A DNA stretch of 64,000 bases from Mycobacteriales bacterium (GTDB taxonomy: Bacteria > Actinomycetota > Actinomycetes > JAFAQI01): the NCBI GenBank assembly GCA_036268405.1, contig DATAUF010000002.1:6910-70909 (forward strand), given 5' to 3'. The translations under genes were made by a program, and so were the position numbers. Within the stretch, counting starts at the first letter, position 1. Each line of letters starts with the position of its first letter. The notes below the pieces were generated by a model. That model saw only the letters and a list, made by a program, of their open reading frames with translations. It was not told where the DNA came from and made no database searches. This document shows positions 6,168 to 43,468 of the stretch, piece by piece.

Positions 6168-6478
6168 TCCTTCGATTGCCGACGTCACGGCTAGCGAGCA
6201 GTCGGCAGGTTGAGAGTGAGGCGTTCCGGCATCGGACGTCTGCTCCTTCGCTTGGTCATCGCAGGTCGCGGCAAGCGTGGGCGAGCTCTCTGAAGCGATG
6301 ATGTGCCGGGCCTGTGGACTTCCTGTATGGAGCGAAGAAGTGTGGTGAGTGCGTGCGCTCTGGCCCAATCCAAGCGCGGGCGGGCGGGAGTGACAGCCTT
6401 ACGGGTAGTCCGACTCAGCCCACCAGGAGACTATCGCTCTCGGCAAGAGCTTCGGTGGTGAGAAGAAAGGTGTGCGAG

Positions 6479-26908: not shown

Positions 26909-28090
26909 ATGGATTTCGCGTTGCCTGAGTCGGCGCTCGCGGTGCAGGAAGGCGTCGGCCGGGTCGCAGCAAAGTTCGACCTTGCGTACTGGGACCGTTG
27001 CGACGCCGAGCACACCTGGCCCGAAGAGCTGTGGCAGGAGCTCGCCGGGTCGGGCTGGATCGGCCTGGCAATTCCCGAGGAGTACGGCGGCGGGGGACAA
27101 GGTCTCCTTGAGCTTGTCGTTGCGACCGAGTGCTTGGCGGCAAGTGGGGCCGGCGGCGCTGCGTCGTTGCTCTACGTGCTCACTCCGGGATTCGGTGGGC
27201 TGACCGTTTCGAGGCACGGCACGGCGGAGCAGAAGGCGGAGCTGTTGCCTGGCATGGCGACCGGCGAGATCGAGGCGTGCTTTGCGATCACCGAACCGGA
27301 CGCCGGCAGCAACGCGTTTGCGATCACGACCTTTGCTCGTCGGGAGGGGTCGGACTTCGTCGTCAACGGCCGCAAGATCTGGACCTCGGGTGCGGCGCGC
27401 TCGAAGTGGATGCTCCTGGTCTGCCGGACGACGCTTGCGATCGACAACCCGCGATCGAGCAGTGGCTTCACGATCCTGCTGGTCGACATCCCAGAGGCGC
27501 TCGCCAACGGATCACTGACACTGACACCGGTGCCGAAGATGGGCACCAACGTCGTGCCGTCCTACATGGTCTATCTGGACGACGTCCATGTCCCGGCGTC
27601 GCGGGTGCTGGGTGAGGTCGATCGCGGCTTCACGGTGTTGTGGGACATCCTCAATCCGGAGCGCGCACTGGTAGCGGCGGGTGCCGTCGGAAGCGCGGAC
27701 CTCACCCTTCGGCTCGCCTGTGACTACGCCAACCAACGCGAGGTCTTCGACCGGCCGATCGGCGCCAACCAAGGCGTCGCGTTCCCGTTGGCACACGTCA
27801 AGGCACAGACCGAGCTCGCGCGGTTGATGACGTACAAGGCGGCCTGGCTCTACGACAACGACCTGCCCAGCGGAACCGAGTCCAACGTTGCGAAGTACAC
27901 CGCCGCGAACGCGTGCTTTGACGCGGCGGACCGCGCATTCCAGACCTTCGGCGGGATGGCGTACGCCACCGAGTACCCGATCGCGCGGATCTTTCGCGAT
28001 GCCCGCATCCTCCGGACCATCCCGGTCTCAGAGGAGCTGATCCTCTCTCACATCGCCACGCAGTCGTTGGGCCTGCCGCGCAGCTACTAA
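26909..28090 (+). CDS. Acyl-CoA dehydrogenase
   Basis: FAITEPDAGSNAF; ACAD C-terminal helices; no spaced SD, so possibly leaderless. Confidence 0.9.
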   Translation: MDFALPESALAVQEGVGRVAAKFDLAYWDRCDAEHTWPEELWQELAGSGWIGLAIPEEYGGGGQGLLELVVATECLAASGAGGAASLLYVLTPGFGGLTVSRHGTAEQKAELLPGMATGEIEACFAITEPDAGSNAFAITTFARREGSDFVVNGRKIWTSGAARSKWMLLVCRTTLAIDNPRSSSGFTILLVDIPEALANGSLTLTPVPKMGTNVVPSYMVYLDDVHVPASRVLGEVDRGFTVLWDILNPERALVAAGAVGSADLTLRLACDYANQREVFDRPIGANQGVAFPLAHVKAQTELARLMTYKAAWLYDNDLPSGTESNVAKYTAANACFDAADRAFQTFGGMAYATEYPIARIFRDARILRTIPVSEELILSHIATQSLGLPRSY

Positions 28091-28779
28091 GAGGTCGCGC
28101 GACCTAAAGCCGGCCGTCCGCGTCGCTTGGCGTGCGCCTTGAGTGTCGCGTCATCGCACAAGCTGTGCTCGACAATCGCTTGCGCGGTGCGCAGCACGGT
28201 TTCTAGTGGGTCCCGCTTCGGGTTCCACCACTCGGCCGTCCAGTTGAGGGCGCCGAGCAGGAGCATGCGCGCGCTGAACGGATCGAGCTCGGGCCGGAGC
28301 AGGCCCTCCTTCTCGGCGTCGCGGATAAGCAGCCGCCAGATCTCGCCGTACTTGGCTTCCTCATCCAGCTGGTGTTTGCGGATCGCGTCGGGAACCTGGC
28401 CGGCGTTGCGGATGGCGGCGGTGGTGTAGTCGGAGATGCCGAGCTCGTACCGCAGGTGGGCTTCTGCGGCGACCTTGATCCGGCTGATGGCGTCGGTGCC
28501 CTTCGGGAGCGCGTCGAGCTGGGCCTGGACGTGCTCTCGCATGTGCTCGAGGCCGACCGACATCACGGCCTCGATCAGGTCATCGCGAGATTCGAAGTAG
28601 TAGTAGATCGCTGGAGCCTGGATCTCGGCCTTGTCCGCGACGTCGGTCAGACGAGTGCCTGAGTACCCCTTGCGGCTGAGAACGTAAGCAGCAGCATCAA
28701 GAATCCGCTCTCGGGTGCGCGCTGACTTGCTGTCGTCGCCATCCGTCGGACGTCGACGTGCGGCGACTGCCTTTGCCAT
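28087..28779 (-). CDS. TetR family regulator (paralog 2)
   Basis: ATG 28779; HTH RKGYSGTRLTDVADKAEIQAPAIYYYF. Upstream TATGAT-N6-ATG suggests a leaderless transcript. 3' end overlaps the convergent ACAD by 4 nt. Confidence 0.88.
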   Translation of the reverse strand: MAKAVAARRRPTDGDDSKSARTRERILDAAAYVLSRKGYSGTRLTDVADKAEIQAPAIYYYFESRDDLIEAVMSVGLEHMREHVQAQLDALPKGTDAISRIKVAAEAHLRYELGISDYTTAAIRNAGQVPDAIRKHQLDEEAKYGEIWRLLIRDAEKEGLLRPELDPFSARMLLLGALNWTAEWWNPKRDPLETVLRTAQAIVEHSLCDDATLKAHAKRRGRPALGRATS

Positions 28780-28786
28780 TTTCGAA

Positions 28787-29602
28787 TCATAGAAGAGATG
28801 CGCGAGGGTCGTTGACTGCGATCTCGACGGCCTCACTACCGAGGTACGCGGCGCGCACGATGTCGCTCGAGCCGACCTCGGACGCCGTGCCCTGGAAGAT
28901 CGGCTGACCGAAGTCGAGGACGTGAATGTAGTCACAGACGCTCATGACAAGGCTCATATCGTGCTCGACCAGCAGAACCCCCACACCGTGGTTGGTGACG
29001 AGGCTTCGCAGAATCCGCCCGAACGCGATGGTCTCCACCTTGTCCAGCCCAGAGCTCGGCTCATCGAGCAGCAGGATCTTGAAATCGCCGGCGATTACCC
29101 GCGCGAGCTCCACCAGTCGTCGCTGCCCGGTGCTGAGGTCCGCCGGTCGTCGATCGGCGAGGTCACTGATGCCGCATTGGCTCATCGCCGTCCGCGCTGC
29201 GTCGGTCACGACGACCTGGTCAGCGCGCGAGCTGCGCAGATGCCGGAACGGCTGGCTGCCGGCCATGCCGGCCTCTCGGCCGAGGGCGACGTTCTCGCGA
29301 ACCGACAGCGAGTCGAAGAGCTCCATCTGCTGGAACGTCCGGCCCATACCGAGCTGCGCCCGGTGCTGTGCCGACCGGTGGGTCACATCGTGGCCGAACA
29401 ACTCGACGCGCCCAGAGGTAGGGCGCACTAAGCCGGTGCAGGCGTTGAAGGTCGTGGTCTTTCCCGCGCCGTTGGGTCCGATCAGGCCGGTGATCTGACC
29501 GATCGGTGCTGCGAGGCCGATCTTGTTGACGGCGACGTGGCCGCCATATCGGACGACGATGTCGGAGATGACGAGTCCGGCTGCGGGACGGTCGAGTGTC
29601 AT
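28787..29602 (-). CDS. Branched-chain amino acid-type ABC transporter ATP-binding protein (LivG-like)
   Basis: GPNGAGKTT Walker A, LSTGQRRLVELAR signature, LLLDEPSSGL Walker B. Confidence 0.92.
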   Translation of the reverse strand: MTLDRPAAGLVISDIVVRYGGHVAVNKIGLAAPIGQITGLIGPNGAGKTTTFNACTGLVRPTSGRVELFGHDVTHRSAQHRAQLGMGRTFQQMELFDSLSVRENVALGREAGMAGSQPFRHLRSSRADQVVVTDAARTAMSQCGISDLADRRPADLSTGQRRLVELARVIAGDFKILLLDEPSSGLDKVETIAFGRILRSLVTNHGVGVLLVEHDMSLVMSVCDYIHVLDFGQPIFQGTASEVGSSDIVRAAYLGSEAVEIAVNDPRASLL

Positions 29603-30303
29603 GACACCCCCACCTCGGCGCCGACGTATCGGCTGAACACATCCTCACCTTCGAGCTCGCCAGGATCACCGGCAAAGGCGACCTCGCCGCGGTTCATGAG
29701 ATAGACGATGTCGGCGACTTCGAGTGCTCGGACGACGTACTGCTCGACGAGCAGCAGGCTGACACCTTCGGTTCGAAGCAGCGCGAAGAACGCGAAGATC
29801 TCGTCGACGATCTTAGGGGCGAGCCCCATCGATACTTCGTCAAGCAGGACGATGCGTGGTCGTTGTACGTAGGTCCGCGCCAGCGCCAGCATCTGCTGCT
29901 CGCCGCCGGACATGGTGCGCGCGACTTGACCGAGCCGCTCGCCCAGTCGTGGGAAGGCGCTGACGGCGCGGCTAATGGCACCGGCCTGCTCGCCGCGCGG
30001 TGCCTGGACCAGAAGATTGTCGCGAACCGTCAGGTTGGGGAAGATGCCGCGGCCCTCGGGCACGTGGCACACACCGTGGGCTACGAGTTGGTGCGGCGCC
30101 ATTCCGGTGACGTCATGACCATCGATCTCGATGCGCCCACTGGTGGGGCGGAGCAGCCCCGACGCCACCCGCAGCAACGTCGTCTTGCCGGCACCGTTGG
30201 AGCCAAGGAGTGCGACCACCGAGTGGTCCGGCACGGTGATGCTGACGTTGCGCAGCACTGTCGTGCCGCCATACCCGGCCACGATCCGCTCGAGTGAGAA
30301 CAC
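29599..30303 (-). CDS. Branched-chain amino acid-type ABC transporter ATP-binding protein (LivF-like)
   Basis: GSNGAGKTT, MSGGEQQMLALAR, VLLDEVSMGL; GTG start with GGAGG RBS; ATGA overlap with the LivG-like gene. Confidence 0.92.
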   Translation of the reverse strand: MFSLERIVAGYGGTTVLRNVSITVPDHSVVALLGSNGAGKTTLLRVASGLLRPTSGRIEIDGHDVTGMAPHQLVAHGVCHVPEGRGIFPNLTVRDNLLVQAPRGEQAGAISRAVSAFPRLGERLGQVARTMSGGEQQMLALARTYVQRPRIVLLDEVSMGLAPKIVDEIFAFFALLRTEGVSLLLVEQYVVRALEVADIVYLMNRGEVAFAGDPGELEGEDVFSRYVGAEVGVS

Positions 30304-30336
30304 AGATGCCTCCGACCGATGTTGAACGAAAGCTCA

Positions 30337-30355
30337 TTATTGAAAGTAGGTTCAA
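30337..30355 (-). promoter_or_regulatory. AT-rich 19-nt element, copy H (TTGAACCTACTTTCAATAA)
   Basis: Reverse complement of ttattgaaagtaggttcaa, in the divergent region between the ABC ATPase operon and the surface-module/permease operon. Confidence 0.4.
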
Positions 30356-30399
30356 ATCGGTGTTACGTTACCGCCGTGTTCCTGTCTTGGAAAGCGCGG

Positions 30400-31734
30400 A
30401 TGTCGCTGTGGCTCGGCGCCGTCGGGCTCGTCGGGATCGCGGTCATGCTGCCCGGCCTGGTGGATGCCGCGCACGCCGCATCTGAACCGACGTTCGATGC
30501 GGTAGCAACGGCGTACGGGCTTGACGTGACCGTTGCCAACCAGGACATCCCTCTTGGCCTCACCATCGAAGGCGCCGGTCCAGTGGCGCAGGCCGAGCTG
30601 ACGTCGCTGCCGCAGTCGACGTCGTTCGCGTCGTTGCCGTATCCGGGCGGGACGTTGGTCCAGCTGCCGGGGCTGGTCGGGGCACTGGTGCCTGGCACTC
30701 CCGCGCTGCCCGCGTACCCGGCCTATGTGAGTGCAGCTCTCGATTCAGGGCCACAGAGCAACGACATTCCGGGTGTCACGCTGACTGCCCAGTCGACTCC
30801 GACCAACAGCCAGGCCACCGCGATCGGTGGCACCGGCAGCACCGGATACAGCGCCACCGCCAGTGTCGAGCTGGACTCGGCGGGCAATGTGACCGCCGCC
30901 GGCGACGCGACGTTCAGCGACCTTGGGCTTGGTCAGCTGGTGTCGATCAGCAACGTGCACTCGGCGGCGAGCGAGATCCTCAACAACGGCAGCGGGCAGC
31001 TGACGCATACCTCGTCGCTGACGATCGGCGACATCTCGGTGCCGGGGCTGAAGCTGGCTATCCCGAAGACCACGCCGACGCAGGTTCCGGTGCTCGGCAA
31101 GCTTCCGCCGATTCCGCTGCCGTTCGGTGGCATGACGATCGACGCGCCCGAGCTCGGGTTTGAGAACGGGACGTTCACCGTCTCGCTTCCACTTCTCGGA
31201 AGCGGCAACTACGCGGTGCCCTTCAGCGTGGTGGCGACGGCCCTGAAGGCGGTCGGAATCACCGCGACGTTCGAGCAGCCGATCGTGAAGAAGCAGAGCA
31301 TCGTGTCATCTGCGCTGGTCCTCAGCACCGTCTTGCCCTCGCCGCCCAAGAACCTCCCGATCACCGGACCGGTGCCGGTGACGGTGACCATCGGACGGTC
31401 GACGGCGGCGTTCAGCGGCCACTTGTTGAGCGCACCGGAGTCGACCGGTCCGGCCACAGGTGGCTCACTGCCGGCGACGTCAGCGGGATCATCGTCGTCC
31501 GGAGTTGGTGCCGGCGCCCTTCCGGGACTCGGCGCGATCCCCGGCGATGGGGCGGCGCCACCTGAGCTCGCCGGTCCCCCCACCCAACCCGGGTCCGACT
31601 ATCTCGTCTCCCAAGGTGTGAACCTCCCGGACACCTCGGACATCTATTTGGTCGTCGTTGGCGCGGCGATCATCGGCTCGATCGCTGCACAGGCCCTTCG
31701 AGTGCTAGGGGTGCGTATCCGATGGAACTCATGA
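30400..31734 (+). CDS. Uncharacterized secreted protein with C-terminal membrane anchor
   Basis: ATG 30400 (GGAAAG upstream). Signal peptide MSLWLGAVGLVGIAVMLPGLVDAAHA. T/S/G/A-rich body, G/P/S linker, C-terminal TM IYLVVVGAAIIGSIAAQAL followed by RVLGVRIRW. No family recognized. Confidence 0.75.
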   Translation: MSLWLGAVGLVGIAVMLPGLVDAAHAASEPTFDAVATAYGLDVTVANQDIPLGLTIEGAGPVAQAELTSLPQSTSFASLPYPGGTLVQLPGLVGALVPGTPALPAYPAYVSAALDSGPQSNDIPGVTLTAQSTPTNSQATAIGGTGSTGYSATASVELDSAGNVTAAGDATFSDLGLGQLVSISNVHSAASEILNNGSGQLTHTSSLTIGDISVPGLKLAIPKTTPTQVPVLGKLPPIPLPFGGMTIDAPELGFENGTFTVSLPLLGSGNYAVPFSVVATALKAVGITATFEQPIVKKQSIVSSALVLSTVLPSPPKNLPITGPVPVTVTIGRSTAAFSGHLLSAPESTGPATGGSLPATSAGSSSSGVGAGALPGLGAIPGDGAAPPELAGPPTQPGSDYLVSQGVNLPDTSDIYLVVVGAAIIGSIAAQALRVLGVRIRWNS

Positions 31735-32132
31735 CATTTCTGCGGCGTCAGTGGGACCGCGTTGCGGCCGGCGTGCTGCTGCTTGCCGGGGTCCTGGTGA
31801 TCCTTCTCGGCTGGGTGGGCGTGAGCGGGACGACGCATGTCGCCGCGCAGCTGCCGTACTTCATCTCGGGTGGCTTGTTCGGGTTGTTCCTGCTCGGGGT
31901 CGGCCACATGCTCTGGACGTCTGCCGACCTTCGCGACGAATGGGCCGAGCTGCGCGCTATCCGGACGCTTCTCGAGGATCAAGCGTCGACAACACCAACC
32001 GGCGAACCCGCTGGCGAGCAAGTTGTCGTTGCGACGGAGGCCCCCAACGGCGTCACGCGTCATCCTGCAGCGCGTCGTACGGCGACCGCGGCGGGTGCGG
32101 CGAGGACTCGCCGCGCGAAGGCCGCGCCGTGA
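31731..32132 (+). CDS. Uncharacterized 2-TM membrane protein (paralog a)
   Basis: ATG 31731 overlaps the upstream stop (ATGA); alternative ATG 31722. Motif W-x-G-x3-TTHV-x2-QL-x4/5-GG between two TM segments. Confidence 0.7.
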   Translation: MTFLRRQWDRVAAGVLLLAGVLVILLGWVGVSGTTHVAAQLPYFISGGLFGLFLLGVGHMLWTSADLRDEWAELRAIRTLLEDQASTTPTGEPAGEQVVVATEAPNGVTRHPAARRTATAAGAARTRRAKAAP

Positions 32133-32209
32133 TCCCTCGGCCGTCGATCGTTCGCGAACGCGGCTTCGGGCGGCGAACCATCTCCGGCGCGCGCGACGAA
32201 GGTGCCGCG

Positions 32210-32692
32210 ATGGACCGGAGCTTCGGAGCGTTCGCCATGGGCGCTCCTTGGCAGGTGGCTGACGTCAGCCGATTGCTGTTCCGCGTCGCCTTGGCGTTGG
32301 TCGCGTTTCTCGTCACTTGGTATGGCGCCGCCCACACGACGCATGTCAATCGTCAGTTGGCCTGGCTTGCTGGTGGTTCGGCCGCTGCGGCGATCGGTTT
32401 GGTGGCAGTTGTCGCGTGGGAGACCGCAGGTCTGGCCCGAGTCAGGTATCTCAAGCTCGAGGTTGCCTCAACGATTCGGGTCCGGTACGAAGGCACCGCC
32501 ACCGCCGCGGAAATCCGCAATGCGATCAAGACCACCGATCCCGCGAAGGCCGCGCTCTGGGTCTCTGCTCCCGGAATGCGCCTCTACCATCGGCCCGGCT
32601 GCCAGCTCGCACTAGGCAAACCCGTCAAGCCGGTGAACCGCGCCACGATCGACCGGGCCGGCCTCGCGCCGTGCGGAGCGTGTGACGCGTAG
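32210..32692 (+). CDS. Uncharacterized 2-TM membrane protein (paralog b) with C-terminal Ada-like Zn-binding motif
   Basis: ATG 32210 with GAAGG upstream. Same WYGAAHTTHVNRQLAWLAGG motif. C-terminus YHRPGC-x22-PCGAC. Stop overlaps the permease GTG by 1 nt. Confidence 0.72.
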   Translation: MDRSFGAFAMGAPWQVADVSRLLFRVALALVAFLVTWYGAAHTTHVNRQLAWLAGGSAAAAIGLVAVVAWETAGLARVRYLKLEVASTIRVRYEGTATAAEIRNAIKTTDPAKAALWVSAPGMRLYHRPGCQLALGKPVKPVNRATIDRAGLAPCGACDA

Positions 32693-34608
32693 TGGCCATC
32701 TACCTGGTGATCGGCATCGTGGTCGGCTCCGCCTACGGGATCGCCGCCATGGGCCTCGTGCTGAGCTACAAGACCTCTGGGGTCTTCAACTTCGGCCACG
32801 GCGCGATTGCCGCAGTGGCCGCCTACATCTTCTTCGACCTGCATCAGCGGCACGGCATGGCGTGGCCGCTGGCTGCGCTGGTCGCTGTGGTCGGCTTCGG
32901 TGCGGTTGCCGGGCTGATCATGGAGTACCTCGCTCGCGGCCTGTCGGGGCTTCCCACCCAGGCTCGTGTTGTTGCGACCGTCGGCATCATCGTCTTTGTC
33001 GTCGGGCTGATGCAGCTGATCTTCGGGCCGTCGTCGCTGGACTTCAACAGCTTCCTGTCCCAGCACGTGGTCTTCTCCGTGTCCGGAGTACAGATCACGA
33101 CCGAACGGATTGTGACAATCGGGTTCGGTCTGGTCTCGGCACTTGCGCTGTTCGTGTTCTTCCGGCGTACCTATATCGGCACCGCGATGCGGGCTGTTGT
33201 CGATGACCCTCACCTGCTCGACCTCACTGGCGTTGCGCCGGCGCGGGTCCGGCGGATCTCCTGGGTGATCGGATGCATGTTCGCGGCCGTCTCGGGTCTG
33301 CTCTTTGCGTCCAGCGAGCAGCAGCTTGACGCCACGCTGTTGTCACTGCTCGTGGTGCAGGCATTCGGTGCCGCAGCGATCGGGGCATTTACCAACCTGC
33401 CGCTCGCCTACGCCGGTGGGTTGTTCCTCGGGGTGGTGCAGGAGGTCATCAGCAAGGTGGAGGCCACCCACCAGGCACTCACCGGGCTGGACCAGGTCGT
33501 GCCGTTCATCGCGCTGTTCGTCGTTCTGATCGCCTACCGATCGCGATGGCTCGTCGAACTCGGCGAGTTCGTGCGGACCAGATCGGCATCGACTGCGCAT
33601 CTGCTGAGCAAGCGAACGCTGACCGCGTCGTACGGCATGGTCGCCGTGGCGGCGGTGCTCATCCCGTTTGTCGTCGGCACCAAACTGCCGTCCTGGAACG
33701 CCGGGATGGCGCAGATCGTGCTGTTCCTCTCACTTGGTCTTCTGGTCCGAACCTCAGGACAGATCTCGTTGTGCCAGTGGGGCTTCGCGGCGATCGGGGG
33801 AGCCACGCTTGGTCACCTGCTCGGCCACGGCGTGCCGTGGTTGCTCGCGGTGTTCATCGCCGGACTGGCTGCCGTGCCGGCCGGCCTACTTGTGGCGATC
33901 CCGGCGATTCGCCGGTCCGGGTTGTACCTCGCGCTCGCCACTCTGGGCTTTGGCGTCGTCCTGGAAGAGTTCGTCTACAACCGAAGCTTCCTGTTCGGCG
34001 GCACGGGTGGTCTGATGACCCCGCGGCCGCATCTCTTCGGATTGGAGACGGACAAGGGCTATTACTACACGATGCTGGCGATCGTCGTGTTGTGCATCGG
34101 CCTTGTCGTCGCCGTCGAGCGCTCGCGGCTCGGCCGGTTGCTGCGGGGTCTGGCCGACAGCCCCGTCGCACTCACAACGCTTGGCGCCAACATCAACATC
34201 ACCCGCGTCATCATCTTCTGCACGTCGTCGTTCCTCGCAGGCATCAGCGGCGCCATGCTCGCCTCGCTCTACGGTCAGGTGAACCAAGGGTCGTACAACT
34301 ACTTCTCGTCCATCACCATGCTCGCCGTCTTGTTCGTCTCCGGCCGGACGACGGTGTCGGCGTCGATCGTCGCCGTCCTGCTGAGTGTCGTGCTCCCGGG
34401 CTACATCCAGGGACAGAACTTCTCGGAAGCTCTTCAGATGTCGTTCGGACTTGCGGCGATCGTCTTCGCCCTCATGTCGCAAGGCAGGTTCGGAACCTTC
34501 TTCGGCGCAGCAGCGGCGCGATCCGAGGACCGAACCGAAGGCTCCCGGTTGCGCTCGCGTTCCTCGGTTGCCGCAGTTGAGAACCACTCGTACCTCGTCC
34601 AGGCCTGA
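32692..34608 (+). CDS. Fused LivH-LivM type branched-chain amino acid ABC permease
   Basis: 638 aa. The N-terminal half has LivH features (GVFNFGHGA, GTAMRAVVDDPHLLDLTG). The C-terminal half has LivM features (GQISLCQWGFAAIGG, GRLLRGLADSPVALTTLGANI). Confidence 0.9.
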   Translation: MAIYLVIGIVVGSAYGIAAMGLVLSYKTSGVFNFGHGAIAAVAAYIFFDLHQRHGMAWPLAALVAVVGFGAVAGLIMEYLARGLSGLPTQARVVATVGIIVFVVGLMQLIFGPSSLDFNSFLSQHVVFSVSGVQITTERIVTIGFGLVSALALFVFFRRTYIGTAMRAVVDDPHLLDLTGVAPARVRRISWVIGCMFAAVSGLLFASSEQQLDATLLSLLVVQAFGAAAIGAFTNLPLAYAGGLFLGVVQEVISKVEATHQALTGLDQVVPFIALFVVLIAYRSRWLVELGEFVRTRSASTAHLLSKRTLTASYGMVAVAAVLIPFVVGTKLPSWNAGMAQIVLFLSLGLLVRTSGQISLCQWGFAAIGGATLGHLLGHGVPWLLAVFIAGLAAVPAGLLVAIPAIRRSGLYLALATLGFGVVLEEFVYNRSFLFGGTGGLMTPRPHLFGLETDKGYYYTMLAIVVLCIGLVVAVERSRLGRLLRGLADSPVALTTLGANINITRVIIFCTSSFLAGISGAMLASLYGQVNQGSYNYFSSITMLAVLFVSGRTTVSASIVAVLLSVVLPGYIQGQNFSEALQMSFGLAAIVFALMSQGRFGTFFGAAAARSEDRTEGSRLRSRSSVAAVENHSYLVQA

Positions 34609-34640: not shown

Positions 34641-36158
34641 ATGAGCTCACTCCCACGACCGAGCCGTCACCGCGCCCGTCGCAATGGCACCTTGGTTCTG
34701 GCTGCGGTTGTTGCTCTGCTTGCATCGGCGTGCGGAAGCCGGGAGTCGACCGCGAGCATCGTGGCGACCGAGCGAGGCGGCTCGAAGGTCTTGACGTCTG
34801 GTCAGCCCGGCGCGCCCGGTACGACTCCCGATGGCACCGCGACCTCCGCCACAGGGACGACCGGTGGCACGGTCGCCGGTGGCAGTGGGGGAAGCGCCCC
34901 GCCGGTTTCGGGCGCATCGGGAAGCGGCGGAACCGTGGCTGGCGGAGCCGGCCCATCGCCGGGTGCGGGCACCACGGGGAGCGGCGGCACGACCGGCGGC
35001 AGCGGCTCGACGTCGGCGACTTGCAGCGGTCACGCGAGCCCGATCAAGATCGGCGAGGTCGGAGCGTTCAGCGGCCTGGTCGGCGCAAGCATCCCGGGCG
35101 CGCACGCGGCACTGCCGGTGTGGGTGCGTTACGTCAACGCCCATGGAGGGATCGCCTGCCATCAGGTCGTGCTCTTCCAGGACGATGATCAGTCCAATCC
35201 CGCGATCAGCAGCTCGGACGTCCACACTCTCGTTCAGAGCGACCATGTCGCCGCAATCGTCGGAGACTGGGTCCCTCTTGACGTCGCGGGCTTCCGCCAG
35301 GCGATCGAGTCGGTGAAGGTCCCGGCAGTCGGTGGTGACATGGTCACCACCGACTGGAACCAGAGTCCGTACATGTACGGCGTCGGTGGTGCGGCCCGCG
35401 CGCAGTTCGTCGGTTCGGTCGCCGGTCAGGCCAAGCAAGGCTTGACCAGGATTGCGGTCTTCTACTGCATCGAGTCGACGGCGTGCACGAGCTACAACGC
35501 AGCGCTGGGGCCCCAGGGCGGGGCAGCGCACAACGGCCAGAAGGTCGTCTATACCGCAGCGACGTCGCTCACCCAGCCGGATTTCACGTCACAGTGTGAG
35601 AACGCCAAGAAGGCGAACGCACAGATCATCGTCGCGGCCGGCGACGACTCCTATGTGCAGCGGGCCGCGCGGTCGTGCGCCGGTATCAACTACTACCCGG
35701 TGATGGCACTGTCTGCGACGCAGGGCGACTTCGACAGGTCGGATCGCAACCTTCGCAAGGATGGCGCGTCACTCGGCAGTGCCGCGGCGCCGTACGTGCT
35801 GGACAACACCCCCGCGCTTCAGGCGTTCCACAGTGCGATGAAGGAGTACGCCCCGACCGCGCCAGTTGAGAACTCGGCGATCGTGACCTGGTCGGACGGC
35901 ATGATGTTCAAGGCGGCGATCGACGCGCTGGGACCGGCCGCCCAGACCGAAGACATCACCCCAGCGCTGGTCATGAAAGGTCTCAGCAGAATCAAGAGCG
36001 AGACCCTCGGCGGCTTGATCCCGCCGACGACGTACGGCGCGGGTGGCGGCTCGCGGTCGCCATCGCCGGAGATCCTCTGCTACTACCCGATGCTGTTCGG
36101 ACACAACGGAGAGTTCACTGCACCCGAGGGCAACAAGTACCTGTGCTTCAAGTTCTGA
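34641..36158 (+). CDS. ABC transporter substrate-binding lipoprotein (type-1 periplasmic binding fold, LivJ/K-like)
   Basis: Lipobox LLASAC; about 80-aa G/T/S-rich tether; then IKIGEVGAFSGL...VAAIVGD, typical of PBP type 1. Confidence 0.88.
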   Translation: MSSLPRPSRHRARRNGTLVLAAVVALLASACGSRESTASIVATERGGSKVLTSGQPGAPGTTPDGTATSATGTTGGTVAGGSGGSAPPVSGASGSGGTVAGGAGPSPGAGTTGSGGTTGGSGSTSATCSGHASPIKIGEVGAFSGLVGASIPGAHAALPVWVRYVNAHGGIACHQVVLFQDDDQSNPAISSSDVHTLVQSDHVAAIVGDWVPLDVAGFRQAIESVKVPAVGGDMVTTDWNQSPYMYGVGGAARAQFVGSVAGQAKQGLTRIAVFYCIESTACTSYNAALGPQGGAAHNGQKVVYTAATSLTQPDFTSQCENAKKANAQIIVAAGDDSYVQRAARSCAGINYYPVMALSATQGDFDRSDRNLRKDGASLGSAAAPYVLDNTPALQAFHSAMKEYAPTAPVENSAIVTWSDGMMFKAAIDALGPAAQTEDITPALVMKGLSRIKSETLGGLIPPTTYGAGGGSRSPSPEILCYYPMLFGHNGEFTAPEGNKYLCFKF

Positions 36159-36176: not shown

Positions 36177-37064
36177 TCAGAGCAGTCGCAGGATCCCTTG
36201 TTCGCTGAAGCCGGCTCCCGTCTGGCCGTCGAGCTCGATGTCGGCGGCATCGTCGTAGGCGCTGAACGTCGGCGGTGGTCCGCCGGCGCCCATCGGTACC
36301 CAAAGGCCACCCCGCGCGCTTTGCATGTGCATCGTCAGCGTCTGCTCGTCGGCGGTGGTGAGCACCGCACCGTTGACGAGACCCGAGCCGTCCCGGCGCA
36401 GATCCATGCCCGTGACTGTCACGGTGTGATCCGGATACATCAGGAACCCGTGCGTCGTCCGCTTGTCGTCCATAGCTCGGAACTTCATGACGGTGAGGTC
36501 GAAGTCGGGAAGGCACGCGACGACAGCGACGTACTCAGCCCACGCGGCCGACTCGTCACGGGGACCCCAACTGCGGTCACGCCACCCTTGGCCCGTCACG
36601 GTGACGCGCTCGGAGCCGAGGGTGAGCTGTCCGCTGATGTCGGCGCCTTGCTGGAAGTGACGTAGCGGCACGTCGGCGACGAGGTCGGGGATCAAGCCGG
36701 TCGGTGAGTAGTCCGCGCAGACGAACCGGGGCGTCATCGCCAGGTCTGCCTTAAGCCCGGGTGCGTCGACGGTCACGGTGTTGTTCGCAACGTCGAAGCC
36801 GATGTGCTCGCTGCTGAAGCTGCCCCGCTCGAGCGGCTCGATCAGTTCCATCGCCTGTCCGGCCAGCACCACGCTGAACCTGGCGCGACGTCCTTCGGCG
36901 TTGGGCGAGGTCGAGACGTGGGCAACGCCGAATAGATCTTGGCCGGGGTCCCAAAATGCCAGGAAGGCGTTGTCTCGCCACGGTGCGTCGGTGGTCGGTG
37001 CGCCGGAGTGGATCGGCTGGCTGAGCTGGCCCCACGCGCTGTCCGGGATGGTCTCTGTGGTCAA
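36177..37064 (-). CDS. Uncharacterized protein, RD(R/H)SW-motif family (paralog 1)
   Basis: TTG 37064 with AAGGAG 10 nt upstream; GQGWRDRSWGPRD motif shared with 38751..39803 and the C-terminal half of 53722..55704. Confidence 0.75.
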   Translation of the reverse strand: MTTETIPDSAWGQLSQPIHSGAPTTDAPWRDNAFLAFWDPGQDLFGVAHVSTSPNAEGRRARFSVVLAGQAMELIEPLERGSFSSEHIGFDVANNTVTVDAPGLKADLAMTPRFVCADYSPTGLIPDLVADVPLRHFQQGADISGQLTLGSERVTVTGQGWRDRSWGPRDESAAWAEYVAVVACLPDFDLTVMKFRAMDDKRTTHGFLMYPDHTVTVTGMDLRRDGSGLVNGAVLTTADEQTLTMHMQSARGGLWVPMGAGGPPPTFSAYDDAADIELDGQTGAGFSEQGILRLL

Positions 37065-37098: not shown

Positions 37099-37731
37099 CT
37101 AGCTGGTCTCAGTCACGATCGGTCGACGAACGATCTCGGTCGCGTCGGCGGTGGGTACGCCGAGGGCGCGCAGCGAGATCTCGGCGAAGGCGACTTCCGC
37201 GCCCTTGCCCAGACGGCCGTCGACGATGCTGCGCATCAGAGCTAACGATCCGCCCAGGATCGATGTCACGGCCACCTCGATATCGGTGACCTCGAAGCGC
37301 CCCGAGTCCACACCGAGATCGACCGCTCGGCGGGCAGCGGGTTGTACTGCGGTGGCGAACAGCGCGTCGGCGTGGTTGAGGTGAACGACCAGGCGAGCGA
37401 ACGCCGGGTCGTCGTAGGCCAGTCCGACGAACCGTCGGATGGCAACGCTCACGAGTTCGGCCGGATCGTCGACCGCGCCCGTCGCCAGTGCTTCGGCGAG
37501 CTCGCGCAGGCTCTCGGTGACGACCGCGTCGACGATGTCTTCCTTGGACTCGAAGTGGTTGTAGAACGAGCCGAGCGCCACGTCGGCGCGCTCGGTGATC
37601 TCGTTGATCCGCAGTCCGCTGACGCCCTTCTCGGTGATCAACGCACGGGTTGCCTCGGTGAGGCGCGCCCGGGTTCGCTCACGGCGGCGATCGGTGCGGG
37701 TGGGTGCGGGGTCGGGTTTCGTCTGCGTCAC
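37099..37731 (-). CDS. TetR family transcriptional regulator
   Basis: GTG start; HTH EKGVSGLRINEITERADVALGSFYNHFESKE. Confidence 0.9.
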   Translation of the reverse strand: MTQTKPDPAPTRTDRRRERTRARLTEATRALITEKGVSGLRINEITERADVALGSFYNHFESKEDIVDAVVTESLRELAEALATGAVDDPAELVSVAIRRFVGLAYDDPAFARLVVHLNHADALFATAVQPAARRAVDLGVDSGRFEVTDIEVAVTSILGGSLALMRSIVDGRLGKGAEVAFAEISLRALGVPTADATEIVRRPIVTETS

Positions 37732-37779: not shown

Positions 37780-37847
37780 GTTTCTTTCAACTATGGGTTA
37801 AGTTCACCTCACGAACCTGCTTGGGTAGGCGTGGCGAAGGGACAACG

Positions 37848-38723
37848 ATGCTGTCGACCGTGCTGATGTCCATCCCGCTGCCGCCCGTCAACGGTCATGC
37901 TCCGCATTCCTCCGAGACCGTCTTCGACATCTTCATCTTCATTCCGCTCGCGGTTGCGCTGGCTCTCGCGGTCCGGCAGATCCTCGGCCGCAAGGGCCCG
38001 GTGCTGCTCTACTGCATCATCGGCGGCGCATTCGCCGCCACCCTCGAGCCGGTCGTCGACGTGCTCGGTCTGGTCTTCCTCAAACAACACGGCGCGGTCG
38101 AGACATTCACCGTCCTCGGTCGCACGATGCCGCTGTATATCTGCTTCGTCTATCCCTGGTACGTCGGCGGCCTCGGCTACCTCGCCTACAAGCTGTTCCA
38201 GAACGGCATCACCGCGCGCGGGCTGTTTCAGCTGTGGGCGCTGGACTTCGTGATCGACATCTTCCTGGAGTCGCCCGGCATTCTTGCCAAGACGTACTCC
38301 TACTACGGTCACCAGCCGTTCAACATCTGGGGTTTCCCGCTGTGGTGGGGTTTCGTGAATCCTGTGATGCCGATGGCGGCCGGTGCCATGATCTACAAGA
38401 TCCTTCCGCGGCTGCGGGGTGTGCAGCTGCTCGCGATCATCCCGCTGATCCCGATGGCTGACGGCCTGGCCAATGGCGCGACGGCCTGGCCGATGTGGGT
38501 CACGCTCAACCAGCAGAACGTGTCCTACGTCTGGACCTACCTGGCGAGCTTCATCACGCTCGGGCTGGCGTTGTACTCGGTTTGGATGATCTCGCTGGTC
38601 GTCGCACGACCGGTCGAGGAGGTCGGGGACGAGTCGATCTTCGTCAAGCTCAAGGCGCTCGTCGCAAAGCCGGCCGCCGAGCTTCCCGCCGTTCCCGCCG
38701 CCTCGCTGACCCTGACTCACTGA
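37848..38723 (+). CDS. Uncharacterized polytopic membrane protein
   Basis: ATG 37848 with GAAGGGA RBS; at least 7 hydrophobic segments; W/F/Y-rich loop YYGHQPFNIWGFPLWWGF; no family recognized. Confidence 0.75.
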   Translation: MLSTVLMSIPLPPVNGHAPHSSETVFDIFIFIPLAVALALAVRQILGRKGPVLLYCIIGGAFAATLEPVVDVLGLVFLKQHGAVETFTVLGRTMPLYICFVYPWYVGGLGYLAYKLFQNGITARGLFQLWALDFVIDIFLESPGILAKTYSYYGHQPFNIWGFPLWWGFVNPVMPMAAGAMIYKILPRLRGVQLLAIIPLIPMADGLANGATAWPMWVTLNQQNVSYVWTYLASFITLGLALYSVWMISLVVARPVEEVGDESIFVKLKALVAKPAAELPAVPAASLTLTH

Positions 38724-38750: not shown

Positions 38751-39803
38751 ATGTCCATCGCGACGCATCCGCCGGAGAGCGATCTGATCCTGCCGTTGCC
38801 CGGCGCGGGTGAGGACTGGGATCCGCACACGATCCACACGCACTACTTCGGACTATCAGTGCCCGAGGCTGCGATCGGTGCCTTCATCTACATCCGCTAC
38901 CAGCCCGCGCTTGCGCTGTGCCAGGGCGGTGTCGTGATCTTCCGCGGCACGGACAACGTGTCGATCCTCGATGCCGAGCACGTCAACTACGAGATTACGA
39001 TGCCGTGGCCGCAGGTCGACGGCAATACGATCCGGACGGCCAACGGTCTGTCCATCGAGTTCGTCGAGCCGGGCCGGGTTGCGCGGGTGTCCTACGCCAG
39101 TGCGGACGGCTCGGTGTCGCTCGATGTGACACAGACCGCCGTTACGCCGCTCCTGGTTCGCGGGCACGTCATGCCCGGCGAGGAGGACCACCACGGCGAC
39201 CCGGGCCGGGTGCCTGGCGGCAGCGAGCAGTTCATGCACTGCGTCGGCGAGCTGGTGGTTGGTGGGGAGCGCTTCTCCGTCGACTGTTACGCGGCGCGCG
39301 ACCGATCGTGGCGGCAGGTACGCACCGAGACGCAGGGTGGCGTGCCGGTCCCGCCGGTCGGCTGGTCGCCGATGTACTTCGGTCCCGACCTGATCTTAAA
39401 CCAGATCAGCTTTGAGGCACCGGACACCGATCCGTCGTGGACGGGCATCTACGAGATGCCCGCGGACCGCCCGACCCATCACTTCGCGTGGCTCCAACAG
39501 GGCGAGGAGACCCTGAACATCGTCCGGGTGCGTCGCGAAGTCCTGGAGTTTCAGCCCTTGACCTTCGCGACGCTGCGCCAGCAGATCGAGGCCGAGGACG
39601 AGAACGGCCGGGTGCACCGATTCACCGGTGAGGCAATCGCGACCGCGGTCATCCCTGCCTGGCCGAATGTGTCGTTCCACGACAGCGTCTTCCGCTGGGA
39701 AGACGAGCAGGGTCGCATCACGCACTGCACGTATCAAGAGATCTGGTTCGACCGCTACCAGCGGGCAATGAAGGCGCGCGCCGCGCGCGGCGTACTGGTC
39801 TAG
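38751..39803 (+). CDS. Uncharacterized protein, RD(R/H)SW-motif family (paralog 2)
   Basis: GGAGA RBS; YAARDRSWRQVR motif; 350 aa. Confidence 0.78.
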   Translation: MSIATHPPESDLILPLPGAGEDWDPHTIHTHYFGLSVPEAAIGAFIYIRYQPALALCQGGVVIFRGTDNVSILDAEHVNYEITMPWPQVDGNTIRTANGLSIEFVEPGRVARVSYASADGSVSLDVTQTAVTPLLVRGHVMPGEEDHHGDPGRVPGGSEQFMHCVGELVVGGERFSVDCYAARDRSWRQVRTETQGGVPVPPVGWSPMYFGPDLILNQISFEAPDTDPSWTGIYEMPADRPTHHFAWLQQGEETLNIVRVRREVLEFQPLTFATLRQQIEAEDENGRVHRFTGEAIATAVIPAWPNVSFHDSVFRWEDEQGRITHCTYQEIWFDRYQRAMKARAARGVLV

Positions 39804-41051: not shown

Positions 41052-42683
41052 CTAGGACCTGCGCAGGGCTCGCTTCGCTTTGGCGACCGCGCCGCCACCG
41101 CGACCGCTCCGCTTGATCATCGTCTTGGCGGCGACCATGCCGGGGATGCCGCTGATGCCGCCGGTGGGATGGGTGCCGGCGCCGGTGATCCAGAGGCCCG
41201 GCACCGGCGTCTCGTAGCCGCCGAAGCCCTGCGCCGGACGCAGCGGTCCGAAGCGCCACATCGTGGGCTCGACGTGGTAGACGTTTCCGTCCGGAACGTT
41301 GAAGCGCTCCGCAAGATCGGGCGCGGAGTAGACGCGTCGGCCGATCTCAAGAGTGTCCAGTCCTTCATAGACCGTGGCGCACTCCTTGAGGACGCGGTTG
41401 CCGATCTCGTCGCGGACGTCAGCCCAGGGCACGTCGGGGTTGCGCGGCACGATGCCCGACCACAGCCAGAAGGTGTCCTGCCCCTCCGGTGCTTGGGTCG
41501 GGTCGATGGCCGACGGCACGATCCCGATGAAGCAGATCGGGTCGGGCCAGCGCCTGCCGACGACGTTGTTCCACGAGTCGATGTGGTTCTCGTAGCTCTG
41601 CCAGCTCACGATCGGACGGCGAAGGTCCAGCCCGTCCTTGCGCCAAGCATTGTGACGCGGCGTCGTGATCCTGCCTGATGCCGCGACGTCGATCTTCAAC
41701 GTCGTCGTCTCCAACACGTTCGTCGGGATGCGATCGGCGCGGCGTTGCAGATGCTCGGGAAGGACGTCGCGAGGTAGCAGCTGAGAAAGCGTCGCCTTCG
41801 GGCTGCACGAAGCCATGACCTGCGACGCGCGCAGCTCCTCGCCGTCGGCCAGCCGGACTCCGGTGACCGCGCCAGCCGTGACCAGCAACTCGTCGACCCG
41901 AGCCGACGTGCGAACCGTCGTGCCGTGATCGATCAGCCAGGCGTTCAGTGCATTCGTCAGCGCTCCGGTGCCGCCTTCGAACCGCGCCGAGTTGGTGCGG
42001 TGACACATCGCGATATAGATCAGGGCCCAGCCCGTACCGTCCTGCGCCATCCAGCAGAACGGCGGCATCGAGGCGAGCGCGCCGCGAACCAACGGATGGT
42101 CGAACCGCTCCTCGATGACCTCGGCGTGCGAGGTGGTCAGGAAGCTGAGCAACGGCGCGAGATCCTTGCGCCGGCGTACCGCCACCGGGAGGGCCTTGAG
42201 GACGTCGCGCGGGTTCGGGCGGAGTGGGTGGCCGAGCATGAGCGGCATGACCAGGTCCATCGCCGCGTCGAGGGAGTTCGCGAACTCCAGGTAGTTGGCG
42301 GCGTCGTGGGGGGAGAAGTGACGGATCTCGTCCGCGGTCTTGCGGGGGTCGCACCAGAACGCCAGCGACGGTCCCTCGGGGTCCAGATGGACGTGGAACG
42401 GATCGGCGATGAGCTGCTTGAAGCCGTAGCGCGACAGGTCGAAGTCGCGCTCGATCGACGTCGCCCGGAACAGCGACGCCTGGATCCCGCCTTCGTTGAT
42501 CCGGTGGTTCGGAGCGCCGGGAATCACGGCGTTGGTGGAGATCATGCCGCCGACGCCGGGCGACGCCTCGAGCACCGTGACCTCGAATCCGGCCTTGCGG
42601 AGGTACGCAGCAGCCACCAGTCCGTTATGGCCGGCACCGACCACGATCACGTCGGCGTTGCCCTTGGTCGATCCGATCGTCAT
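41052..42683 (-). CDS. NAD(P)/FAD-dependent oxidoreductase, phytoene desaturase (CrtI)-like family
   Basis: ATG 42683 with GAAGAGG RBS; dinucleotide fold VIVVGAGHNGLVAAAYLRKAGFEVTVLEA; 543 aa. Confidence 0.85.
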   Translation of the reverse strand: MTIGSTKGNADVIVVGAGHNGLVAAAYLRKAGFEVTVLEASPGVGGMISTNAVIPGAPNHRINEGGIQASLFRATSIERDFDLSRYGFKQLIADPFHVHLDPEGPSLAFWCDPRKTADEIRHFSPHDAANYLEFANSLDAAMDLVMPLMLGHPLRPNPRDVLKALPVAVRRRKDLAPLLSFLTTSHAEVIEERFDHPLVRGALASMPPFCWMAQDGTGWALIYIAMCHRTNSARFEGGTGALTNALNAWLIDHGTTVRTSARVDELLVTAGAVTGVRLADGEELRASQVMASCSPKATLSQLLPRDVLPEHLQRRADRIPTNVLETTTLKIDVAASGRITTPRHNAWRKDGLDLRRPIVSWQSYENHIDSWNNVVGRRWPDPICFIGIVPSAIDPTQAPEGQDTFWLWSGIVPRNPDVPWADVRDEIGNRVLKECATVYEGLDTLEIGRRVYSAPDLAERFNVPDGNVYHVEPTMWRFGPLRPAQGFGGYETPVPGLWITGAGTHPTGGISGIPGMVAAKTMIKRSGRGGGAVAKAKRALRRS

Positions 42684-42733
42684 CCCGACCTCTTCCGCGC
42701 GGTTCACCCTCAACCTAGACAAGGCTGAATGAT

Positions 42734-42752
42734 TTTTCAATAATGACTAGAA
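42734..42752 (-). promoter_or_regulatory. AT-rich 19-nt element, copy G (TTCTAGTCATTATTGAAAA)
   Basis: Reverse complement of ttttcaataatgactagaa; 15/19 identical to copy A; in the divergent region between the CrtI-like gene and membrane protein 42773. Confidence 0.45.
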
Positions 42753-42772
42753 TTTCAGAAAAGGGAGGCTCC

Positions 42773-43468
42773 ATGAAGGTCAACACGCAGAAGGCGTATG
42801 CCTACAGCGGTGTCGCGATGATGGTTATGCTGCTGGCCGCGCTCCTCATCGCTGGGTGGCTGCCGCCTCCGGGACCGCACGAGTCCGCCCGACAAGTTGC
42901 GCACGACTATCAGGCCCACACCACGGCGATCCGCATCGGAATGATGGTGGGGATCTTCGGCGCCGCACTGCTCGGTCCGTTCGTCGCATCGATCGCCGTC
43001 CAGATGCGACGCATCGACGACGGCGTCGGCCCATCGGCCTACTGCCAGCTCGCGCTGGGTTCCATGTTGATCATCGAGTTCGTTCTCCCGTTCATGATCT
43101 TCGAGGTTGCTGCCTTCAGGCCGGACCGCTCCCCGGACATCACGCTGGCCCTCAGCGACATCGGATGGATCCTGCTCGTCGCCACGGTGAGTACCGCGGT
43201 GGTCGAGCTGCTTCTGGTCGGACTCGCGATCGGCGCCGACAAGCACGAGACGCCTATCTTCCCGAAGTGGGCGGCGACGTTCAGCTATTTCGTCGCGGCG
43301 GTGTTCAGCCTCGGCGCCGGTGCGGTCTTCACTGAGCACGGCCCGTTCGCGTGGAACGGGTTGCTGTCGTTCTGGGTGCCGCTCAGTGTGTTCGGCGCCT
43401 GGCTTCTCGTGATGACGGTGCTGTTGGCTCGGGCGATCGACTCGCAGGCGGTCGAGCTCACGCGATGA
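42773..43468 (+). CDS. Uncharacterized membrane protein (6 predicted TM)
   Basis: ATG 42773 with GGGAGG RBS; repeated hydrophobic segments; no family recognized. Confidence 0.72.
   Translation: MKVNTQKAYAYSGVAMMVMLLAALLIAGWLPPPGPHESARQVAHDYQAHTTAIRIGMMVGIFGAALLGPFVASIAVQMRRIDDGVGPSAYCQLALGSMLIIEFVLPFMIFEVAAFRPDRSPDITLALSDIGWILLVATVSTAVVELLLVGLAIGADKHETPIFPKWAATFSYFVAAVFSLGAGAVFTEHGPFAWNGLLSFWVPLSVFGAWLLVMTVLLARAIDSQAVELTR

Follow-up and report, generated by a model that had tools for sequence, protein, structure and literature searches.

Three genes of no recognised family, here termed P1, P2, and P3, were studied in a 64,000-nt stretch of contig DATAUF010000002.1 from a Mycobacteriales bacterium (assembly GCA_036268405.1, positions 6,910 to 70,909; this whole stretch is called the window, and coordinates without a locus name refer to it). 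They lie beside the genes of a Liv-type ATP-binding cassette (ABC) importer, and we consider it reasonably probable that a distinct clade of substrate-binding-protein-dependent HAAT (Liv-type) importers of soil Actinomycetota uses their products as dedicated extra subunits. As judged from the sequences, the fused LivH-LivM permease is always accompanied by five predicted transmembrane (TM) helices together with an ectodomain and a zinc-type domain on the cytoplasmic side. That the proteins form a complex, what each part does, and which class of substrate is carried are what we infer beyond this.

Related loci were collected in three sets, 8 by exact look-up of P1 homologues, 28 from species-representative genomes by a P1 pattern, and 80 from metagenomes by a P2 pattern, and were annotated with hidden Markov models (HMMs) of P1, P2, and P3 and by phmmer with the permease, binding protein, and ATPases of the window. 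Linkage was counted over the 115 loci with a strong P2 match. The fused permease was located within 1.6 kb 3′ of P2 in all 64 loci with more than 1.5 kb of downstream sequence, and P1 ended directly 5′ of P2 in 65 of the 68 loci with more than 1.5 kb upstream. The loci picked by P2 alone, which provide an independent test of P1 and the permease, gave 34/34 for the permease and 34/37 for P1. Homologues scattered without an ABC transporter, which an earlier note on this DNA had named as the finding that would speak against a functional link, were therefore not observed. The three loci without P1 upstream were L072, in which P1 was found again at the operon end after the ATPase genes, and L069 and L082, in which none was present on the stretch examined; L069 is laid out like L072, but its stretch stops within the permease. 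Placement of P1 at the operon end, after the ATPases, was seen in L059 (4925 to 6202) and L072 (11694 to 13001). In L069, an unrelated open reading frame (ORF) of ∼172 aa (6445 to 6963), a member of a three-locus cluster, sits upstream of P2.

ATPase and binding-protein genes were present in every locus with wide flanks (24/24), and their position varied between divergent upstream, same-strand upstream, and downstream. Because these genes are always present yet change position, the invariant core is P1-P2-P3-permease, and the initial description of the three genes as inserted inside a Liv operon was misleading, since it is the other genes that rearrange. The P1 stop and P2 start overlapped in 77 of 92 loci (13 nt in 35, 10 nt in 12, 4 nt in 22, and 1 nt in 8), as did the P3 stop and permease start in 64 of 74 (4 nt in 57 and 1 nt in 7). 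The suspected co-translation with the permease was thus borne out by overlaps kept across the family: translation of the trio is coupled to that of the permease, and the linkage between them is obligate. One locus, L119 (contig_99, 2.6 Mb, ERZ25039546), was excluded from the statistics, as its operon was split into many short gene calls, likely by frameshifts in a long-read assembly.

In the window, the system spans 28.8 to 36.2 kb and consists of seven genes, with two divergent ATPase genes followed by P1, P2, P3, the permease, and the binding protein on the plus strand; the flanking Liv-type genes were as the earlier note had listed them. On the minus strand, the gene for a LivG-type ABC ATPase (28787 to 29602, 271 aa), whose orthologues, found by phmmer in the related operons, carry ABC_tran and BCA_ABC_TP_C, overlaps by 4 nt that for a LivF-type ABC ATPase (29599 to 30303, 234 aa), which has orthologues in every sufficiently long related locus. 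An AT-rich spacer of ∼70 to 100 nt separates the divergent ATPase genes from P1, which ends at 31734 on the plus strand. The likely start of P1 is GTG 30376 (452 aa), not ATG 30400 (444 aa): the GTG is kept in L011 and L001, the ATG reads ACA in L011, and the longer form gives the signal peptide an extra basic K-A-R n-region. The start of P2 (31722 to 32132, plus strand) is probably ATG 31722 (136 aa, MELMTF...), because its homologues begin ME(L/I), and that of P3 (32129 to 32692, plus strand) is probably GTG 32129 (187 aa), because this agrees with the NCBI and Joint Genome Institute (JGI) gene calls and the closest homologues (65 to 79% identity) have 183 to 187 aa. A public record identical to P3 at 100% reads 'MAG TPA: hypothetical protein VHV76_00455 [Mycobacteriales bacterium]'. 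Two hydrophobic segments were found in each of P2 and P3, as first described, and the lengths of 133 and 160 aa given then were probably too short. The reported junctions, ATGA for P1/P2 (31731 to 31734; from ATG 31722, P2 overlaps P1 by 13 nt) and TAGTG for P3/permease (32690 to 32694), were both found, together with a further GTGA for P2/P3 (32129 to 32132). By the Nei-Gojobori method, comparison with the 83%-identical locus L011 gave omega values of 0.147 for P1, 0.145 for P2, 0.346 for P3, 0.086 for the permease, and 0.119 for the binding protein. P1, P2, and P3 are thus real genes under purifying selection and are conserved as coding sequence in relatives.

P2 consists of a basic N terminus with an invariant W-D-R (motif QWDR), helix 1, a short loop (GW.GVS...QLPY), and a glycine-rich helix 2 followed by an invariant S-A-D-L-R-D-E-W; by the positive-inside rule, both ends are predicted to be cytoplasmic. 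The 88-residue P2 unit aligned across the family with zero gaps. A profile search with it in a 90%-clustered database yielded at least 1,250 proteins, and an exhaustive search yielded 1,951 clusters at 50% identity with E values of ≤1e-3, 718 at ≤1e-10, and 212 at ≤1e-30; none of the family members carried a Pfam domain or an informative name. P3 has the same hairpin, then a long helix, then a small C-terminal domain, and Foldseek of its model gave zero matches. The proposed paralogy of P2 and P3 was marginal by BLAST (E 0.002) and clear by hhalign of the P2 unit against the P3 hairpin (probability 97%, E 8e-11, 61 columns); the P3 HMM also matched P2 genes throughout the annotated loci, and the two proteins are paralogous by these profile comparisons. 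Natural P2-P3 fusions of 287 to 304 aa were found in L007, L008, L036, L037, and L038. Three hairpin units, with an additional P2-like unit fused ahead of the P3 unit, were present in L021 (a single ∼345-aa ORF, 9349 to 10386), L030 (9432 to 10283), and L031 (2230 to 3186). As gene fusion is a classical sign of physical interaction, P2 and P3 would be expected to interact physically.

P1 begins with a hydrophobic signal sequence ending AHA/AS and has a T/S/G/A-rich core, and its C terminus is composed of a P/G/S-rich linker, one hydrophobic helix (IYLVVVGAAIIGSIAAQAL), and then RVLGVRIRWNS. The 444-aa protein noted earlier, with signal peptide, T/S/G/A-rich body, G/P/S linker, C-terminal TM helix, and basic tail, was therefore found with all of its parts. 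In the AlphaFold2 model, based on 14 sequences, the mean predicted local distance difference test score (pLDDT) was 64, with all-beta core blocks at 80 to 89 in which the strands form long hairpins (residues 150 to 158, 164 to 177, 181 to 194, and 201 to 213). Residues 343 to 412 (∼70) were disordered and formed a P/G/S tether leading to the TM helix at 413 to 435. The close homologues (n = 16) came from metagenomes only, and a deeper family lies beyond them. Conservation at ≥80% among 71 P1 sequences was confined to positions with Pro, Tyr, Gly, Ala, and Ser, which clustered in FASLPYPG and PxYP (window 30640 to 30720, residues ∼76 to 107 from ATG 30400), where the pLDDT fell below 50. Because these residues alone are conserved, P1 is read as a structural or binding protein and not an enzyme, and the low-confidence loop looks like a partner-dependent interaction surface.

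The Foldseek matches of the P1 model were to porins, FadL, and adenovirus fibres, at E values of ≥1e-3, TM-scores of ∼0.15, and root-mean-square deviations of >20 Å. As far as the model goes, these indicate a generic likeness of antiparallel beta-meanders and no porin fold. A role of P1 as a porin or mycomembrane channel was rejected on the very low TM-scores, the alpha-helical C-terminal anchor, and the presence of the module in metagenome-assembled genomes (MAGs) labelled Acidimicrobiia and Sporichthyaceae. A role as sortase substrate, considered for the LPDTS just before the anchor, was rejected since the motif is lost outside close relatives. A curated model of similar layout is choice-of-anchor P (NF040603), in which a beta-rich secreted domain precedes a C-terminal anchor: residues 105 to 233 of P1 aligned to model positions 5 to 134, but at 15.8 bits (E 0.01) against a curated cut-off of 27 bits, and just 3 of 14 P1 family members matched, also below the cut-off (best E 1.9e-5).

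The C-terminal domain of P3 (32549 to 32689, plus strand) contains the pattern H-x3-C...C-x2-C (YHRPGC-x22-PCGAC), all four residues of which were invariant in 80 unique homologues, and was modelled by AlphaFold2 as beta-beta-beta-alpha with pLDDT values of 74 to 84. DUF6233 (PF19746) was matched by 17 of 43 such domains (best E 1.2e-6) and Ada_Zn_binding (PF02805) by 1 of 43 (E 0.0016); the window copy matched neither Pfam model. By hhalign, the H/C/C/C of P3 was in register with Ada C38/C42/C69/C72 (probability 55%), so that the two domains share four metal-ligand-type residues with Ada-like spacing. Unlike the four-Cys signature of Ada (C-x3-C...C-x2-C), the first ligand in the 80 sequences was always His, in the place of the methyl-accepting Cys38, and unlike both Ada and DUF6233 the P3 domain is fused to a membrane hairpin. 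The earlier term "Ada-like" thus stands for resemblance and register, but not for membership by Pfam threshold or for the methyl-acceptor Cys. A short second hairpin without the H/C3 domain was observed in L018, L019, L024, L070, and L116 (97 to 99 aa in L018, 9523 to 9822, and L024, 9513 to 9806).

The core of the system had the features of a HAAT importer. The fused LivH-LivM permease (32692 to 34608, plus strand, 638 aa) contained the BPD_transp_2 domain (PF02653) in two stretches (E 2.6e-48), and in the NCBIfam scan the LivM, LivH, UrtB, and UrtC models matched both halves; a sequence search of the PDB gave no solved relative of it. The LivG and LivF ATPases were assigned through their match to orthologues carrying ABC_tran and BCA_ABC_TP_C. 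The LivJ-type lipoprotein binding protein (34641 to 36158, plus strand, 505 aa) was of cluster B, with Peripla_BP_6 (PF13458, E 1e-35) and a lipobox Cys31. Residues 32 to 133, following this Cys, form a ∼100-residue tether composed to 84% of Gly, Ser, Thr, Pro, and Ala, and the same ∼100 residues had 64 to 90% of these amino acids in nearly all other module-associated binding proteins (one ORF, 0.53); the tether was taken nominally as the first ∼100 residues after the lipobox Cys and is not gap-aware, and as lengths from alignment offsets are partly circular, composition and mature length were relied on. A second Liv-type binding protein encoded on the L001 contig (706 to 1965), unrelated and part of a different system, had 19 residues at the tether position.

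The judgment that the trio belongs to no curated family was upheld, with Pfam, NCBIfam, PADLOC, PHROGs, PDB sequence, and Foldseek searches all below threshold. PADLOC gave no match and PHROGs one, of unknown function (E 0.025), which gives no sign of an anti-phage defence or phage-derived module. Sequence and profile searches of P1, P3, and the zinc-type domain against the PDB returned chance matches only (alpha-synuclein, uL4, and Scribble PDZ), and nothing relevant to the trio was found in the literature on choice-of-anchor proteins, HAAT accessory proteins, and DUF6233.

One pattern-based scan of the GTDB species-representative genomes identified 28 loci, all in MAGs, from Mycobacteriales, Sporichthya/Sporichthyaceae, Acidimicrobiia/Acidimicrobiales, and unclassified Actinomycetota, with one bin labelled Acidobacteria; the canonical operon was present in an Actinophytocola MAG. 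The metagenome matches carried JGI (Ga...) or GenBank whole-genome shotgun contig names, and the few sample labels seen were farmland and forest. A tblastn search of the PLSDB plasmids with P2 gave no match. Three or four operon copies per MAG were observed in CAVRLI01 (L012, L014, L015, and L017, of which L015 and L017 are adjacent on one contig with overlapping contig coordinates), JBFLYK01 (L019, L025, and L030), and CAVRTC01 (L021, L032, and L033). The multiple copies per genome suggest diversification toward different substrates.

The genes around the transporter bear on its substrate. In the window, the operon has as its neighbours genes for two acyl-CoA dehydrogenases and two TetR regulators, along with one for a CrtC-like DUF7065/DUF7064 protein. 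Across the loci, the recurrent neighbours were AMP-binding ligases (11 loci), cytochromes P450 (9), acyl-CoA dehydrogenases (8), family III CoA-transferases (6), enoyl-CoA hydratases (6), aldehyde dehydrogenases (5), SCP-x-type thiolases (5), TetR_C_40 regulators (5), and AveC-like proteins (5), as well as Rieske oxygenases, short-chain dehydrogenases/reductases, and zf-ChsH2/OB_ChsH2_C proteins. The two largest clusters of flanking genes without a Pfam family were antisense ORFs over the core genes and were discarded. These neighbours point to the catabolism of organic acids rather than to a branched-chain amino acid substrate. The ligands of COG0683 (LivK-type) binding proteins are more often aromatic, fatty, or dicarboxylic acids than amino acids of the branched-chain kind (PMC3223731); because of this ligand range and the catabolic neighbours, the cargo is most likely a hydrophobic organic acid. 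The hydrophobic substrate suggested in the earlier note agrees with the acyl-CoA ligase, beta-oxidation, P450, and TetR neighbours. Its passage across the cell envelope, in the sense of a mycomembrane, is an unlikely general reason for the module, because the latter is also found in MAGs labelled Acidimicrobiia and Sporichthyaceae. To our knowledge, neither group is known to have a mycolate outer membrane.

The neighbourhood common to the window and L001 reaches well past the transporter. Shared genes are those for the CrtC-like DUF7065/DUF7064 protein (36177 to 37064, minus strand), a TetR_C_40 regulator (37099 to 37731, minus strand), a 300-aa polytopic membrane protein without a Pfam family (37821 to 38723, plus strand; E 6e-142 to its L001 counterpart), a 350-aa protein (38751 to 39803, plus strand), and a 560-aa flavin adenine dinucleotide oxidoreductase (41052 to 42740, minus strand). 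The gene for a 241-aa protein (42743 to 43468, plus strand) is shared as well and precedes COX3-like and COX4_pro-like genes in L001 and L004. Beyond the ATPase genes on the other side, and downstream of them, lies a TetR-family gene (28087 to 28722, minus strand; TetR_N E 1.9e-13, TetR_C_24 E 5.6e-13), whose product is a candidate regulator of the locus.

The divergent intergenic region contains an AT-rich palindrome of inverted repeats (30315 to 30361, unstranded), ACCGAT(G)TTGAAC-N22-GTTCAAATCGGT, which was nearly identical in L011, and in L001 its inner arms change compensatorily (TGAATG/CATTCA). Scans of this region for a sigma-70 consensus and a terminator found none. The AT-rich promoter element proposed earlier thus holds up as a conserved palindrome, but the sigma-70 scan did not reveal a promoter in it. 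From its sequence, the palindrome is probably an operator/promoter element, the operator for one of the adjacent TetR regulators.

How the parts might work together can be proposed as follows. The paralogous hairpins P2 and P3 would pair as a four-helix membrane adaptor that sits against the fused LivHM permease and holds the C-terminal TM helix of P1, with the predicted-cytoplasmic juxtamembrane motifs QWDR and SADLRDEW and the P3 zinc-type domain facing the ATPase side. P1 would display its non-enzymatic beta-sheet ectodomain on the ∼70-residue flexible tether, and the cognate lipoprotein binding protein would ride on its own tether of ∼100 residues. Because both are long-tethered, they may reach beyond the membrane and act away from it, within or at the cell-wall surface. 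There, P1 could concentrate poorly soluble organic acids (fatty, alicyclic, or aromatic) and hand them to the binding protein, or it could dock the loaded binding protein on the permease. The capture or gating role suggested in the earlier note found no support in the structural comparisons, as neither a ligand-binding fold nor a pore fold was recognised. A more far-reaching version is doubtful, though conceivable, in which a five-helix accessory complex of the P1 anchor and the P2 and P3 hairpins, built into LivHM, would link a tethered beta-domain that spans the cell wall and the long-tethered binding protein to the transporter of monoderm Actinomycetota. The resulting relay would draw poorly soluble organic acids from the cell surface to the membrane, as a functional counterpart of the Mce and Lpt bridges made from unrelated proteins, with the cytoplasmic zinc domain modulating the ATPase.

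Several points weigh against the interpretation as extra subunits. The structural models are of monomers, and those for P1 and P3 are of moderate confidence (mean pLDDT 64 and 61). Foldseek of the P1 model against the PDB and BFVD gave no real match (best TM-score 0.15), and no lipid-binding, MCE, LptC-like, or SBP-like (substrate-binding-protein-like) fold was recognised in it; the binding protein, too, has no close solved relative. The neighbouring genes are the sole basis for the substrate. By sequence, the zinc-type domain is not essential to the core function, because some systems (the five named above) lack it. No cultured carrier was found in the collections searched, by one pattern-based genome scan.

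Other explanations of the trio were weighed on the same evidence. P2 and P3 could be assembly or stabilising factors that insert or stabilise the unusually large fused LivHM, with P1 positioning or protecting the long-tethered lipoprotein, much as Mce-associated membrane proteins, LucA, and OmamA stabilise the actinobacterial Mce lipid importers. The strict linkage of the module to the fused permease would be expected of such factors, as would small hairpins whose glycine-rich second helices are suited to helix packing and a P1 without catalytic residues. However, both P2 faces and the P1 ectodomain motifs are conserved about as well as the binding protein, which suggests specific, lasting contacts, and coupled translation suggests production in a fixed ratio. 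This explanation is held to be unlikely, although the present data do not truly separate it from the extra-subunit reading. Quite unlikely is a transport-coupled sensor or regulator, modelled on "trigger transporter" pairs such as BceAB-BceS or LysP-CadC, in which P2 and P3 would sense the transporter, the P3 zinc domain would control the catabolic genes by binding to DNA or to a partner in the cytoplasm, and P1 would provide extracellular input. It would account for the way the P3 C terminus lines up with the zinc domain by which Ada binds DNA and resembles DUF6233, for the predicted cytoplasmic position of this domain after a long helix, and for the strong conservation of the predicted-cytoplasmic juxtamembrane motifs. 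Yet the domain has just ∼45 residues, no helix-turn-helix or output domain was found, several systems are without the zinc-type domain, and dedicated TetR regulators are already present at many loci. Moreover, subunits produced at a fixed ratio for one complex are more typically encoded with overlapping start and stop codons, as seen here with the permease, than is a low-abundance regulator.

The trio might also be an independent surface-protein cassette, an adhesin or envelope structural protein with two membrane partners, that merely shares a transcript with the transporter. P1 is adhesin-like in being T/S/G/A-rich, and its central region is weakly like choice-of-anchor P in the 3 of 14 relatives mentioned above. 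Such a cassette is very improbable, however: the permease lies directly downstream in all 64 informative loci, the ATPase and binding-protein genes rearrange round an invariant trio-permease block, and in most loci P3 runs into the start codon of the permease. The linkage data effectively exclude an unrelated surface cassette.

HAAT importers are textbook five-component systems, and a large clade with three added components would alter their annotation and modelling. The clade is concentrated in uncultured soil Actinomycetota, beside genes for the breakdown of fatty, alicyclic, and aromatic acids, in organisms of importance to the turnover of soil carbon. Should the module prove to relay hydrophobic acids from the surface to the membrane, lipid uptake would have a third independent solution besides FadL and Mce. 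P1, P2, and the P3 hairpin each make up a new, well-defined protein family that merits a database model, and the loci provide a context for DUF6233.

Compared with LivHMGF-LivJ/K of the HAAT family (TC 3.A.1.4), the system has the same core of BPD_transp_2 domains, LivG/LivF ATPases, and a Peripla_BP_6 binding protein. It differs from the standard HAAT system in that a single polypeptide of ∼640 aa combines LivH and LivM, the binding protein bears a ∼100-residue tether, and three added genes provide five TM helices as well as an ectodomain and a zinc-type domain; we know of no such extra subunits described for HAAT systems. In the ECF (energy-coupling factor)-type metal importers CbiMNQO and NikMNQO, CbiN and NikL/NikK are operon-encoded accessory components for substrate loading. 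They would resemble the trio in that the importer depends on a small hairpin protein with two TM helices and, depending on the version, on one more extracytoplasmic protein, but CbiN and NikKL serve ECF transporters with no soluble binding protein and with metal ions as cargo, and Pfam scans of the module gave no match to CbiN or its relatives. The Mce lipid importers of Actinobacteria, which are accompanied by Mce-associated membrane proteins, LucA, and OmamA, share a cargo that is hydrophobic (here presumably so), several small accessory membrane and anchored extracytoplasmic proteins, and adjoining beta-oxidation or steroid-type genes. Unlike these, the present system has no MCE domain or YrbE/MlaE permease (Pfam and NCBIfam scans of P1 to P3 and the permease gave no match to MCE or MlaE, and the system was not classed as an Mce importer), the P1 anchor is C-terminal and not N-terminal, and the binding protein is of the LivJ type. 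LptC in LptB2FGC is a single-pass protein with a beta-rich extracytoplasmic domain whose TM helix associates with the ABC membrane domains. It resembles P1 in having a single TM helix and a beta-rich extracytoplasmic domain, but it is anchored N-terminally and is part of an exporter, and Foldseek of P1 retrieved neither LptC nor LptA. By analogy, and with no homology detected, the closest systems in function would be ABC systems that need small membrane or anchored helpers (CbiN, NikKL, Mam/LucA/OmamA, and LptC). The core is by sequence an ordinary HAAT importer, and the trio looks like a set of previously undescribed, widespread extra components.

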